From positions 198,152,001 to 198,216,000 of the forward strand of contig OZ024740.1 of the NCBI GenBank assembly GCA_964016885.1: DNA of 64,000 nucleotides, in the 5' to 3' direction. Positions 7,001-45,997 of the stretch are shown here, in pieces; within the stretch, counting starts at the first letter, position 1; every line of letters starts with the position of its first letter. The translations under genes were made by a program, and so were the position numbers. The DNA comes from Eledone cirrhosa. Its lineage: Eukaryota. Below the pieces are notes generated by a model that searched no databases, had not been told where the DNA came from, and saw nothing but the letters and a program-made list of their open reading frames with translations.

Positions 7001-7101
7001 TATATATATATATATATATATATATATATATATATATATATATATATATATATATATATACGATATTAAATCAATGGAAACTATATTTATAAAACCATAT
7101 T

Positions 7102-7167
7102 TATTTCATTATATATATTTCAGGGATATCATATTAACAATATGTTATGCCTTCTTCAGACAAAATA
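7102..7167 (-). ncRNA. Minimal type I hammerhead ribozyme, family A (left-arm copy)
   Basis: Reverse complement of the HHR at 7333-7398. Confidence 0.8.
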
Positions 7168-7332
7168 CAATATAGACAGTTTTATAAATAAATAGATTTG
7201 ACATACCGTTCAACATCGACTTGTATTTGAAAAGTTGATTTGGCAGTCAAAATCTGCCAAATCAACTTTTCAAATACAAGTCGATGTTGAACGGTATGTC
7301 AAATCTATTTATTTATAAAACTGTCTATATTG

Positions 7333-7398
7333 TATTTTGTCTGAAGAAGGCATAACATATTGTTAATATGATATCCCTGAAATATATATAATGAAATA
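7333..7398 (+). ncRNA. Minimal type I hammerhead ribozyme, family A
   Basis: uauuuugu CUGAAGA agg...ccu GAAA U-AUAU-A UA^ augaaaua. Stem I is 8 bp with 2 G-U pairs. Predicted cleavage after 7390; AATAAA overlaps the end. Confidence 0.8.
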
Positions 7399-7734
7399 AA
7401 TATGGTTTTATAAATATAGTTTCCATTGATTTAATATCGTAAATATACTCCAAATACTTGTTGAGTGCTTTTATATCCGTTATAAATATTTACTAGTTGT
7501 AACCCAACAATTTAAATATAACTTTCCATATATATATATATATATATATATATATATATATATATATATATATATATATATATATATATATATATATATA
7601 TATATATATATAAATATATATATATATATATATATATATATATATATATATATATATATATATATATATATATATATATATATATATATATGTGTGTGTG
7701 TCTGTGTGTATAGTTTTATATATATATATATATA

Positions 7735-8284
7735 TTGTTATACTTTGGGAGGGTCATGTTGCCAATAAGAAACACACGCACCAGCTGCTTTCACTTCAAT
7801 TTATTATATATTTATAAATTTACAAATTTATAAATTTCTGGTTGGTTGGTTGGTTCCACAACCAGATAGTTGTTTATATATAGTCATAGTCCTTTCGTCA
7901 CACACTCTGTGACATCTTCAGTGACTGGGGATTCCTTTTTTTGTTTCTGTGCCTCTCCTTTGTTCTGTCCTACGCCATTTTGAGTAGGACAGAACAAAGG
8001 AGAGGCACAGAAACAAAAAAAAAGGAATCCCCAGTCACTGAAGAGGTCACAGAGTGTGTGACGAAAGGACTATGACTATATATAAACAACTATCTGGTTG
8101 TGGAACCAACCAACCAACCAGAAATTTATAAATTTGTAAATTTATTAATATATAATAAATTGAAGTGAAAGCAACTGGTGCGTGTGTTTCTTATTGGCAA
8201 CATGACCCTCCCAAAGTATAACAATATCGGTTTCAACACACGATTTCAGATAAAGAATCTTGCTAAACAAATTCAGAAACGAAA
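7735..8284. mobile_element. Palindromic pLTR-like element, family C, with an HHR on each strand
   Basis: Arms 7735-7973 and 7984-8224, 10-nt spacer, tail 8225-8284. HHR on + at 8033-8077: aguca CUGAAGA gGUCACA-gagug-UGUGAC GAAAG-ga-CUA^ ugacu. Mirror copy on - at 7882-7926. Confidence 0.9.
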
Positions 8285-9136
8285 TATATATATATATATA
8301 TATATATATATATATATATATATATATATATATATAAAGAATGATGCGCTGATCCATACACATGCTATAATGTAGGGTGAAAACCCTGAAAGACGGTGGA
8401 AATGGTGTCATGGCCCGTTAGCTTAATTATTAAAGCGTCATGGTTGAAAAGTACATGTATTGTTTGTATAAATGTATATATGTATGTATATGTATCTCTC
8501 CCTCTATCTGTACACACACATACACAAACACACACACACACACACACACACATATATATATATATATATATATATATATATATATATATACATATATATA
8601 CATATATATATATATGAAGTGAGTTTTATTGAGTTTTCATAATAAAATACATGGAACTCTTTTAACCATCTTTTGATTTTATATTATATATATATATATG
8701 TGCGTATGTATATTTATGTATTTGTATATGTAAATGTATATTTCAGAATACAATACACGATATTCTCGTGACAACCTCTTTGAGAAAATAGGTGATAAAT
8801 GAAGTCGATGAGGCCTTGATAAAGATTTCCAACTCATGCTGAATTACACGAAATCTTGCATACATTGGTTATAATTAAAGTATTGTCTGAAATTGTTCCC
8901 TCTTACTCCATATCACTGTGTCTTTCTTTTTCGCTCCCTGTATTTCGCTGAATTTTAATTAATTTAAAATATATTCAATCGATATTTTTCCATGTTTTAA
9001 ATGTTTTCTAATAACATTACTAATAATCTAAGTGAGATGACTTTTTTAAAGATAAATTTACACTATTTACCAATAACTATGTATTTACAAAAATTTATTT
9101 ATAAATATGTATGCGGATTGTTCTGAAGTGTATGCG

Positions 9137-42689: not shown

Positions 42690-42988
42690 CCGCTACTTCT
42701 CTGAATTGAGAGATCACAGCTCTGATAGTATGGGCATGTGATTAGAATGTCTCAGGAAAGAAGCACTGGACAGATTTTATGGACAAAACCAACCGGCAAG
42801 AGACCAAGGGATAGACCCCCGAGCATGATGGTTGGATAACATCCATGAGCTTCGAAGTTCACACTTGGAGATCCAGCTGGATCAGCTGGAGATGGAGTGT
42901 TTGAGAACTTTTCCCCCATGACCCTCTCAGGAATATGTGGGCGCAGAAGAAGAAGAAGAAGAAGAAGAAGAAGAAGAAGAAGAAGAAA
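42690..42988 (+). mobile_element. 3' end of an RTE-type LINE with (GAA)n tail
   Basis: cagattttatggacaaaaccaaccggcaagagaccaagggatagaccc...tggttggataacatc (QILWTKPTGKRPRDRP..WLDNI), then (GAA)n at 42945-42988. Confidence 0.65.
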
Positions 42989-44147
42989 GTAATTCATGGT
43001 TAGCCACAGTGGGAAATGAATGCGGAACAATTTTAGATACAACTAAATGCCGAGCAGCATTTGGTATTCTAATGTTGCTGCTAGTAAGAAAAACAGCGGC
43101 ATAAGGGCTCGAAGACCTGACTGATTGCTTAAGAAGTTCCATTCACAATCTTAAGGTCTATTGTTTGACCCCACTGTGTGTGAAATTTGTTAGACAGAAA
43201 CTGTGAGGAATTCCATTGATGAATTGTACTTTTATTTCAAGGTTCCAGTTTTCTCACATATCGTACCACGTTGATTGTTCTTGAGAATTACGTTAAATAA
43301 AGTACCAGTAACGCACTGAGGTCGATTTAATCGGCGTTTTCACTCCTCCAAATTGCTGGCCTTGTGCCTAAATCAGAAACCATTATCTAGAATCAGTTCA
43401 TTACTGACCGATGGCAGCTATGATCAATGCTGTTCCACCCATAACTATCCTATTATTTTAGCTCTATATGTCTTTTCACTAAAGGGAAATAACATGGTAT
43501 GATTTGTGAGAGCATTCTGGACATTGCGCTGCTACTTTTAGCATATTGATCAACAACGTTGAGGATTCAATTTGGCTGACTAAACATTACGTGAATATCT
43601 AAATACTAACCGTCTCCATTACATTTAAGAACAGATCGAATAATCGCGATGATTACTATTCGATGACAACTCTGAAAGGTTGAACTGTGGAAGCATGTTC
43701 GTGATAAAGATATTCAAATTAGGATGCTGTACTTAAATGGCAAATGTTAGAAAAGCTCAATACCGTGACATCAGAGTTACATCAGAGTTGAAAATATTCA
43801 CGTAACACATGGAAATAGAGAAAAGCAGATACATACGAATATATCGATAGTTAAGCGGCATATATACATACATATATATATATGTGTGTGTGTATACATA
43901 TATATATATATATATATATATATATATATATATATATATATATATATATATATATATATATATATATTTGTATATGTGTGTATGTATATATATATATAAA
44001 TATATATTGGTAACATATATATATAAATATATATATTGGCAACATGACCCTCCTAAAGTATAACAATATATATATATATATATATATATATGTATATATA
44101 TATATATATATATATATATATATATATATATATATATATATATATAT

Positions 44148-44335
44148 AACGAAGGAGTTGTGGTAAGGAACCAGATGGACCATAACGCACCAGGGTACTT
44201 AACACTTAGTAGAGTGGGCAATAGGAAAATGTATGACCCAGACGGCAGAGCTCAAGCCGTTTCGACGGCTATTTCTATTCAGAAATAGCCGTCGAAAGGG
44301 CTTGAGCTCTGCCGTCGGGGACATACATTTTCCTA
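44148..44335. mobile_element. Short palindromic element, family G, carrying the 3' half of an HHR
   Basis: Arms 44221-44276 and 44281-44335. Left arm, minus strand, reads GAA ACGGC-uugagcucu-GCCGU C^; the CUGANGA half is absent. Tail 44148-44220; (TA)n flanks. Confidence 0.8.
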
Positions 44336-44871
44336 TATATATATATATATATATATATATGTGTGTGTGTGTGTGTGTGTGTGTGTGTGTGTGTGTGTGT
44401 GTGTGTGTGTGTGTGTGTGTGTGTGTGTGTGCGTGTCTGTGTGTGTATGCATGCGTATGTGTTTACTAAGAGACATACAGTGAGGTACAGCAGTAAGAAG
44501 ATAAGTAGACTGGAACGTAATAGGAGTTAGTAATTATATATAATAAATAATAATTAAACTATCTTTATAGATTCATGTTGATTTAATGCTTTTATTTTTT
44601 ATTCCTTGGCTTATAAGTAGAGGTTGCAACCTTGTTGGCAAGAACGTGAAGACACCACCAACAACATTAGTGACACCAGCCACAATCTAGCATATTATAT
44701 TTCCATTTATTTTCGATAGCTGGAATATAAGTTTCTTCTGCCAAGTTCGCTCTCAAATTCATTTGGAATGGTTTGCATAATTTCATCTGATATTTACATA
44801 TGTATATATATATATATATATATATATATATATATATATATATATATATATATATATATATATATATATAC

Positions 44872-45496
44872 ATATTATATATAGAGTTATAAACTCAAAT
44901 AATTAGTATTTTTCAATCTAGCTAACTTGGTCATTTACAATACAAACACTTATATACTTGTATTAGTGTTTATCCCTATCATATATTCATTTGTATTACA
45001 CGGCTCAGAAATATCCCTTTCTTTGAGCTATTTAATTGTAAAAGACTATTTGAGTTTATAACTCTATATATAATATTCTCGGCTCCATGCGTTGAGCTAA
45101 TTTTTTAGTCCCATAAAACGGGCTGCTATTTCTAGCGGCACGAGTATAGGACGGGCTAGACGCTGGGTCACATGTGCGTTCAACAACACATTTCTCTCAG
45201 TCTTCCTAAGTATTTTAAGTGAAACTTACCAATTTCTGGATACCTGCAGAAGAGCACAGGAATAGGAGATTTCACTTAATTGTTGCGAAACAAATTTAAA
45301 ATTTGAAATTTAAATTTGTCCAGGTATCACGGCTATTGCCAATATAGGTTTCTTTTTATTGATTTATTATTTTAAATCGAGACAGGCAAACTGTATTATT
45401 TTAATTAGTATTTTTCAATCTAGCTTACTTGGTCATTTACAATACAAACACTTATAGACTTATATTAGTGTTTATCCCTATCATATATTCATTTGT
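44872..45496 (+). mobile_element. Family H element: ~502-nt unit with ~95-nt terminal direct repeat, 29-nt inverted cap and one extended HHR
   Basis: 44901-44996 is repeated at 45403-45496. 44872-44900 is the reverse complement of ~45046-45074. (TA)n flanks. Confidence 0.8.
45239..45328 (+). ncRNA. Type I hammerhead ribozyme with long stems and a CAGAAGA (U4A) core
   Basis: gauaccug CAGAAGA gca...ugc GAA ACAAAUUUAAA-auuugaaa-UUUAAAUUUGU C^ cagguauc. Perfect 8-bp stem I, 11-bp stem III, GUC triplet. Confidence 0.8.
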
Positions 45497-45511
45497 ATAT
45501 ATATATATCTA

Positions 45512-45997
45512 TTTCGTTTCTGAATTTGTTTAGAAAGATTCTTTATCAGAAAACGTGTGTTGAAACCGATATTGTTATGCTTTGGGAGGGTCATGTTGCC
45601 AATAAGAAACACACGCACCAGTTGCTTTCACTCCAATTTATTATAAATTAAATTTAAGAATTTATAAATTTCCGGTTGGTTCCAAAACCGGACGTATGTT
45701 CATATATTGTCAAAGTTCTTTCGTCACACATTCTGTGACCGCTTCAGTGACTGGGGATTATTTTCTTTGTTTTTGTTCCTCTCCTTTATTCTGTCCTACG
45801 CCATCTTGTTTTTTTCAAGTCACTGAACAGGTCACTGAAGAGGTCACAGAATGTATGACGAAAGAACTTTGACAATATATGAACAACCGTCCGGTTGTGG
45901 AACCAACCAACCAACCGGAAATTTATAAAATCTTGGAGAGAAAGCAACTGGTGCGTGTGTTTGTTATTGGCAACATGACCCCCCCAAAGCATAATAA
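45512..45997. mobile_element. Palindromic element, family C, third copy (opposite orientation)
   Basis: Tail plus long arm at 45512-~45810 (minus-strand HHR 45709-45751, core mutated to CUGAAGC). Short arm ~45818-45997 (plus-strand HHR 45831-45873). Confidence 0.85.

Follow-up and report, generated by a model that had tools for sequence, protein, structure and literature searches.

Ten palindromic insertions in a 64,000-nucleotide (nt) stretch of the Eledone cirrhosa genome (assembly GCA_964016885.1, OZ024740.1:198,152,001-198,216,000, on a 443-Mb contig of the 3.0-Gb assembly; the whole stretch is referred to below as the window) are, as judged from sequence, extreme 5' truncations of autonomous Penelope-like elements (PLEs). 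They are probably head-to-head insertions of endonuclease-bearing PLEs in which two complementary DNAs (cDNAs) were primed at two sites on one RNA and then end-joined, and this account includes a likely fossil of germline editing preserved in copies elsewhere in the genome. The head-to-head layout, the palindromic junction and the paired ribozymes on opposite strands are already published. For the twin-copy run-off model and the editing fossil, the papers listed by a search of the open full-text literature, outside which lie subscription papers and supplements, included none on start-site run-off for the inverted arms of PLEs or on genomic PLE copies with fixed ADAR edits. The formation of PLE inverted ends is an open question, whose study is called for in PMC8557442 and some steps of which are left unvalidated in the available text of PMC11167929.

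A first-pass annotation of the window had described at least ten palindromic insertions of six families, in or beside (TA)n and with one arm tailed. Self-alignment and a centre scan of the window confirmed inverted repeats at all ten starts, which divide among six families: A (7061 and 30397), B (7735, 38864 and 45512), C (21298 and 34090), D (21961), E (25012) and G (44148). Every palindrome carries a tail on one arm and is adjoined by (TA)n or (TAA)n/(TA)n. The arms measure ∼46-299 bp, close to the ∼50-295 bp annotated, and their mutual identity ranges from near-perfect in the family A copy at 7061 down to ∼83-93% in older copies. Spacers of 3-10 nt, annotated as the usual state, are found in six of the ten (7 nt at 7061, 10 at 7735, 3 at 21961, 5 at 25012, 9 at 30397 and 4 at 44148); by contrast, 21298 is nearly spacerless, 38864 has 163 nt, one locus is old and gapped, and two family B copies have arms offset by 60 nt (45512) and 126 nt.

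Parentage of the palindromic arms

The palindromes are assigned to autonomous PLEs because long copies run into open reading frames (ORFs) and because words from the arms and tails are highly repeated genome-wide. Exact tail or arm words occur 8,671 times for family C, 14,459 for B, 28,869 for G and 23,641 for D, far above chance, with counts of 0 for reversed controls. Genome searches returned 30 loci per family, and ORF-bearing parents are present for A, B, D, G and probably C. The family B parent gives a weak match to RVT_1 (E 0.015) and a GIY-YIG match above the Pfam cut-off, the parent being contiguous in locus L023; its translation, read by eye, has a CX2-5CxxC linker and a CCHH motif in the C-terminal endonuclease, suggesting a Neptune-type element by motif. 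Reverse transcriptase (RT) and/or endonuclease motifs were recognized by eye in A, D and G (L371, L372/L177 and L376, respectively), the A and D pieces being uncalled by Pfam. In family C an ORF lies upstream, separated by nested insertions.

The Hydra clade is described in PMC8557442 as having DKT, a CxCX5C linker, CxxC and CxH around a conserved E/N, no CCHH and (TA)n targets. By eye, the CxCX5C, CxxC and CxH motifs, the absence of CCHH and the (TA)n targets are shared by A, D, G and probably C, and DKT was found in A and D only; the resulting Hydra-type placement is one of motifs from that list, without a tree. No ORF was found for family E within the ∼1 kb of shared upstream sequence of its parent copies, and its putative PLE membership is drawn from architecture and core motif. 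The annotation's assignment to PLEs is borne out, the arms being the 3' ends of PLEs that carry RT plus C-terminal GIY-YIG ORFs. A reading of C and G as short non-autonomous elements is ruled out by their long parents.

The annotation was also right that inverted pseudo-long terminal repeats (pLTRs) with tails are known for PLEs, since the architecture appears in PMC8557442, PMC3846280 and PMC4209133. An adjacent inverted truncated copy plus a tail is described in PMC8557442, and junction palindromes are interpreted in PMC3846280 as products of self-priming. As in the endonuclease-positive PLEs Pen2a_Av (PMC3846280) and Naiad, Chlamys and Hydra (PMC8557442), an inverted 5'-truncated copy lies at the 5' end and the tail at one end only; the palindromic head-to-head junction, the (TA)n targets and an initiator-like pLTR motif are likewise shared. 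The tails are longer here, ∼55-150 bp against 30-40 in the published elements, and the junction statistics favour two RNA-templated arms, unlike the self-priming reading of the published insertions (PMC3846280).

Junction structure and the origin of the two arms

Loci ranked by similarity favour the query's own junction, and the statistics were limited to tail-anchored copies, incidental copies in the flanks of other loci, copies in 120 coordinate-picked stretches of 10 kb, and the window. Exclusion of the central hits at loci selected by junction, and of four known duplicates, left 276 tailed arms, of which 28 were limited by an edge or by the reference and 248 were measurable. The arm structure, on whose reproducibility across loci the first-pass annotation had made its proposal depend, recurs: 140 of the 248 are adjoined by a tail-less inverted arm, which within a family has a constant outer end, at the tail start, and an inner end that differs from locus to locus, and 83 have no adjacent partner. 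Short arms account for 211 of the 248, so that the annotated dominance of ORF-less palindromes holds per copy, although it leaves aside the ORF-bearing parents of A, B, D, G and probably C. Among 131 junction-unbiased pairs with a gap of ≤30 nt, the two arms end ≤10 nt apart in 69, the tail-less arm is longer by >10 nt in 42 and the tailed arm is longer in 20; in 15 of the 131 the arms have no overlap. The joins in the 140 pairs comprise 67 with microhomology overlap, 15 that are blunt and 58 with inserted bases, some of them templated from the junction, a pattern that resembles polymerase-theta end joining.

The arms of four families stop sharply at one base per family, an initiator-like A (in the first 100 listed arms extending to that region, counted by eye with mirror pairs included: ∼71 for G, 44 for A, 36 for C and ∼25 for D). 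Spacers are near zero because the arms stop at this hot spot. In family C a TATA box lies 30 nt upstream of the initiator-like A. The non-parental base beside the terminal A is G in 27 of 38 arms (11/12 in C, 4/4 in D, 7/14 in G and 5/8 in A), and one D locus has a non-parental G on both arms. The sharp stop is interpreted as the transcription start site and the non-parental G as a copied cap, the arms ending by run-off at the capped end of the RNA. A stop that always coincides with the ribozyme edge was ruled out by families A and B.

In the proposed pathway, the PLE protein would cut a (TA)n target on both strands and prime two cDNAs on a single RNA, with one start at the tail end and the other at the tail start. 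Each cDNA would run until it falls off or reaches the capped 5' end of the RNA, and the cDNA ends would then be joined, presumably by microhomology-mediated end joining. For an anole PLE, an in vitro reaction shows cleavage and extension of both target strands, with an RT start site on either side of the tail (PMC11167929). The likeness to this element (PAc; Poseidon, Anolis) thus covers two-strand cutting and extension, bracketing RT starts, a predicted dimer and a product length set by the RNA 5' end; PAc belongs to a different clade, and the available text of the study leaves the joining and the stop of inverted arms unaddressed (PMC11167929).

A family B insertion with two inverted tailed arms (L298/L299; G000:C1:2087823-2090087) bears on the number of templates. 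Over 380 comparable positions its arms have 31 and 29 A>G changes, of which 29 are common to both, and farther upstream 7/7 agree. Two edited words from this locus are found nowhere else in the 3.0 Gb, so that the assembly holds no edited source copy and both arms came from one edited RNA molecule; by this comparison, the templating of both arms by one RNA is shown for one locus.

Several observations weigh against two cDNAs being run off one capped RNA and joined. The single-RNA result comes from a single atypical locus with two tailed arms. A comparison of own arms with other copies gave a weak signal, own arms being nearer than the median of the other copies in five families; the test failed in family D (0.028 versus 0.022), and own arms were strictly closest in only 36 of 185 loci overall. 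Family B has no sharp stop, with four of its first 100 listed arms ending at the ribozyme edge and ∼12 at an upstream site, and in C, D and G the stop can also be read as a 3' splice site. Families G (7/14) and A (5/8) give a weak extra-G signal; mirror arms of a single junction are counted twice in that tally, some of the G's are explicable by microhomology or, in family C, by stem I, and the extent of some older family A ends is set by the reference copy. Away from the hot spot, 29 near-equal pairs were counted against 11.2 in permutations (p = 1e-4), several of them at natural hairpins, so that a further process is also at work, be it a broken RNA end common to both arms, end joining at internal hairpins or a degree of snap-back, and snap-back explains these pairs as well as the other two do. 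At the sequence level, a fold-back annealed to a second short cDNA would look the same as an end-join of two cDNAs.

The near-zero spacers had suggested cDNA snap-back to the first-pass annotation: one cDNA (or an antisense RNA, PMC3846280) would fold on itself and be copied back to give the second arm. As a general mechanism this is wrong, since snap-back cannot give a tail-less arm that extends into sequence which the tailed arm lacks, and the 42 pairs with a longer tail-less arm and the 15 without overlap contradict it as the sole route. Why a second arm should stop precisely at the tail start is left unexplained by it, zero-spacer junctions are found, and in G the same stop is reached by the tail-less arm however short the tailed arm. 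Snap-back nevertheless fits the 69 pairs that end within 10 nt of each other, the off-hot-spot excess, often at natural hairpins, and the shared private edits of L298/L299, which are compatible with one template; overall it is unlikely, and some of the near-equal pairs away from the hot spot may owe their origin to it. Twin priming on two RNAs bound by a dimer, with arms that match through a common RNA 5' end, is distinctly unlikely. It accounts equally well for the hot spot and the unequal arms, and own arms are rarely strictly closest, with no own-arm advantage in D; yet it does not explain the genome-unique edit pattern on both arms of L298/L299 or the subfamily and private variants on both arms in G and C loci, and it predicts no near-equal excess off the hot spot.

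A 3' splice site or the base of hammerhead stem I at the fold centre, in place of a transcription start, is very improbable. In C, D and G the stop does coincide with a YAG preceded by a pyrimidine run and with the 5' strand of stem I, and the intron of Drosophila virilis Penelope ends at the helix I 5' end (PMC4209133). The listed arms, however, have no common upstream-exon sequence past the stop, the family A stop is an initiator-like A without AG, 88 nt upstream of the core, and the family B ribozyme edge also has YAG and stem I, yet shows no stop. Barely credible is the view that the palindromes form a non-autonomous element class of their own, or are artefacts of assembly, spreading as fixed units. 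One junction recurs in a junction-biased family C sample and one family A junction is found at 38 places, but junctions differ between loci in the tail-anchored samples (the fixed family C junction is seen in 0/30 tail-anchored copies), and the 38 family A copies are cargo with shared flanks inside another PLE. Artefact is further opposed by junctions in raw reads of other samples. The annotation had called for long reads to confirm the palindromes. In the raw short reads of three samples, all from one study, strand-switching joints occur at several positions on a non-palindromic family C parent; one joint 3 nt inside the inferred start has 40, 37 and 41 reads, with 2-3 read starts each. The junctions are thus not assembly artefacts. 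Joints on the palindromic reference L365 were uninformative and were not used.

In 100 stretches over the genome (1.0 Mb), 79 tailed arms of the six families were counted, 50 with an inverted partner and 25 near-perfect; this extrapolates to the order of 10^5 loci genome-wide. Non-simple inverted repeats within 2 kb make up 3.2% of bases in the 1.0 Mb picked by coordinate, and the six families contribute 27% of those bases. Many of the remaining inverted repeats are TA-flanked palindromes of further families, and many spacerless ones were noticed in coordinate-picked stretches (e.g. L233, L242, L247, L253, L254, L258 and L333).

A-to-G changes in cargo fold-backs

Family A fold-back copies with a common junction and common flanks occur at loci L361-L368 (e.g. 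G000:C2:55125400-55130500). In two long loci the fold-back lies downstream of a different Hydra-type ORF and is therefore cargo in another PLE; the junction has 38 matches genome-wide. Compared with one real unedited copy, the paired arms of eight full copies carry 256 A>G and five other changes, the 79-nt loop (29 A) carries none, and the tail carries three A>G and three others; two truncated inverted copies, whose left arms fail to align, were excluded from this count. The changes in the two arms lie on the same strand, and in inverted copies the polarity tracks the RNA sense. A 5' G or C is depleted at edited sites (3/41 versus 16/44 unedited sites, p = 0.0015; G alone, p = 0.16), which agrees with the ADAR motif (PMC5625713). 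Edited sites common to all eight copies number 26 and variable sites 17, the latter suggesting further editing rounds, and the GAAA box of the ribozyme is edited in 8/8. As controls, none of 830 family arms has a G>A or C>T skew against 19 with A>G or T>C, and the carrier ORF region has a mixed spectrum of changes. The genome encodes ADAR-family deaminase domains. One of its haemocyanin units aligns with the single-unit chains 4yd9_C and 1js8_A, from squid and octopus, at 659 and 650 bits, compared with 460 and 372 bits for the gastropod chains 8tnv_A and 1lnl_A, in keeping with a likely cephalopod host, the condition under which the annotation had thought editing relevant.

The signature in L361-L368, clustered A>G on one strand, confined to the duplex and with 5' G depletion, is that of ADAR hyper-editing, and these changes are likely RNA edits that were copied back into inherited DNA. 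A fold-back would have been read through inside another PLE's transcript and formed a hairpin, which ADAR would have hyper-edited with loss of the ribozyme core, and the A>G changes would then have been copied into the germline. The annotation had proposed that such hairpins are ADAR substrates; this is supported by the fossil A>G in family A retro-copies elsewhere in the genome and not by the window's own ten copies, none of which has one-strand A>G. That absence counts against the proposal, and it is as expected of first-generation products. A reference-free scan for strand-skewed hairpins, swamped by simple repeats, found nothing beyond the known carrier copies. One contig from run X1, possibly the assembly's own sample, matches 109 bases of an edited arm exactly. 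The (TA)n flanking L361-L368 looks TG-interrupted on the same strand, an uncounted impression.

Hyper-editing of hairpins by ADAR as described in PMC5625713 is alike in its clustered stem A>G and depleted 5' G; the edits there are in RNA reads, whereas here they are fixed in genomic DNA. The same source reports the highest hyper-editing in octopus, with unusually many near-perfect double-stranded RNA (dsRNA) loci, and heavy editing of a lizard Penelope and a palindromic frog Harbinger; in its available text, octopus is omitted from the repeat annotation (PMC5625713). From the fossil edits it is likely that the germline both transcribes fold-back loci and edits the transcripts, and that DNA copied from edited RNA is passed on. 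Editing of retroelement intermediates has reportedly been recorded in DNA before, as A-to-G hypermutated avian retroviral DNA and as APOBEC-edited retroelements in genomes. Unlike those cases, the element here is a non-viral retrotransposon in an animal germline, with A>G confined to the fold-back stem and then amplified to dozens of copies.

With 3.2% of bases in non-simple inverted repeats and 27% of these from the six families, PLE fold-backs are a candidate source of the unusual dsRNA abundance of octopus (PMC5625713). A broader proposal, held tentatively and with slightly less than even confidence, is that twin copying of one capped RNA mass-produces hairpin loci, of the order of 10^5 in this genome, that are a main source of the exceptional dsRNA and hyper-editing known from octopus, and that germline ADAR edits re-enter DNA through PLE enzymes over successive rounds, forming a heritable mutator that also kills the ribozyme. 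The genome offers thousands of junctions on which three predictions are testable: that RT starts at two fixed points, that copying runs off at a defined base and that a single molecule is the template.

Hammerhead motifs and other features of the window

The annotation placed a hammerhead ribozyme, or part of one, on each strand of every palindrome. A complete CUGANGA...GAAA...UH type I motif is present on both strands at three of ten loci (7061, 7735 and 38864), and the others are cut, decayed or variant: 25012 has CUGAUGA on both strands but GAAC in place of GAAA, 30397 has lost GAAA, and the core is severed at 21298, decayed at 34090 and intact on just one strand at 45512. Family D has CAGAAGA as its core family-wide, and family G has only the GAAA-stem III-UC half, also in long parent copies, the first box never being present. 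All elements of a minimal type I hammerhead (CUGANGA, GAAA, UH and helices I-III) can be assigned in A, B and the C parent; D (CAGAAGA), E (GAAC) and G (no first box) each depart from the type I boxes. D, E and G are very abundant despite these family-wide non-canonical cores, with D and G keeping helix III and the cleavage triplet. Cores with an extra base after A9 were identified by hand reading, a strict motif scan missing them, and no hammerhead model was among the best 150 of 279 matches of an Rfam scan, which were sub-threshold miRNA-hairpin and other models.

Folding predicts that the core is paired at 0.98-1.00 in the palindrome and at 0.26-0.96 in a single arm (six loci with a sense-arm core), in line with the annotated idea that the hairpin would mask its own ribozyme. 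Minimal type I hammerheads of metazoan PLEs are alike in having the core in the pLTR, an extra nucleotide after A9, a short or palindromic helix III and dual motifs on opposite strands 100-700 bp apart, derived from truncated PLEs; the variants of D, E and G set the present families apart from them (PMC4209133). A single minimal hammerhead showed no cleavage in the available text of that source (PMC4209133). Two side observations concern hammerheads. A seventh hammerhead-bearing repeat family, in direct orientation and with a large stem II, lies at 2758-2810, 50500-50552 and 51486-51540 (-). Raw reads also contain head-to-tail joints from near the tail start back ∼77 nt (L265:1384-1461; 67, 38 and 36 reads), corresponding to short family C tandem units with a whole hammerhead.

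The family A stub at 7061..7527 (+), of Hydra type, comprises a tail-less arm (7061-7246), a 7-nt spacer, a tailed arm (7254-7439) and a tail (7440-7527), with type I motifs at 7333-7398 (+) and 7167-7102 (-); its left arm stops at the inferred start site and is followed by a non-parental base. An older family A stub at 30397..30771 (+) has arms at 30392-30535 and 30545-30688, a 9-nt spacer, a tail to 30771 and a decayed GAAA box. Three stubs belong to the Neptune-type family B. That at 7735..8283 (+) has a tail-less arm (7735-7973), a 10-nt spacer, a tailed arm (7984-8227), a tail (8228-8283) and minimal cores at 8038 (+) and 7921 (-). At 38864..39676 (+) the arms are unequal, with a tail-less arm (38864-39159), a 163-nt unpaired middle, a tailed arm to 39621, a tail to 39676 and cores at 39427 (+) and 39055 (-). 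The third, at 45512..45997 (-), has a tail (45512-45568), a tailed arm (45569-45813) and a tail-less arm (45831-45997) that is ∼60 nt shorter.

On the minus strand, the family C stub at 21298..21471 has a tail (21298-21360) and arms (21361-21471) that fold inside the hammerhead core, and an older family C stub at 34090..34292, with arms at 34157-34292, abuts a family D fragment (34293-34349). The Hydra-type family D stub at 21872..22074 (-) has a tail from ∼21872, arms at 21960-22015 and 22019-22074, a 3-nt spacer and the variant core CAGAAGA on both strands, its fold centre being the inferred start site. The Hydra-type family G stub at 44148..44336 (-) has a tail (44148-44220), arms at 44221-44276 and 44281-44336, a 4-nt spacer and the hammerhead 3' half only. 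The family E stub at 25012..25385 (+) has a tail-less arm (25012-25118), a 5-nt spacer, a tailed arm (25124-25230) and a long tail to ∼25385.

Further PLE-related sequence is scattered through the window. A GIY-YIG ORF at 9963-10598 (Pfam E 4e-07) lies between inverted repeats at 9802-9968 and 11614-11813, the whole (9802-11813) forming a longer PLE head-to-head insertion, and a Hydra-like endonuclease fragment (weak GIY-YIG) lies at 4029-4373. A 130-bp inverted repeat at 51933-52890, with ∼700 bp between its arms, has a CUGACGA core on the minus strand and the word AAGATGGCG in common with family B. Extra B, C, D and A stubs are nested in the TA tracts of other insertions (30198-30357, 32135-32330, 34293-34349, 39699-39905 and 44034-44065), and more inverted repeats occur at 40375-40754, 38749-38829, 38337-38412 and 60399-60474, one with a microsatellite spacer. 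Of other elements, broken ORFs at 16184-20185 (-) are presumably Helitron Rep/helicase remnants, and a fragment at 13261-13785 is taken to resemble the restriction-like endonuclease of a non-LTR (long terminal repeat) element. A LINE-type RT fragment lies at 48376-49738, and an abundant SINE-like repeat of ∼190 bp, partly tandem, occurs at 23481-23671, 27952-28143, 28435-28868, 38546-38733, 49866-50279 and 60423-60576.

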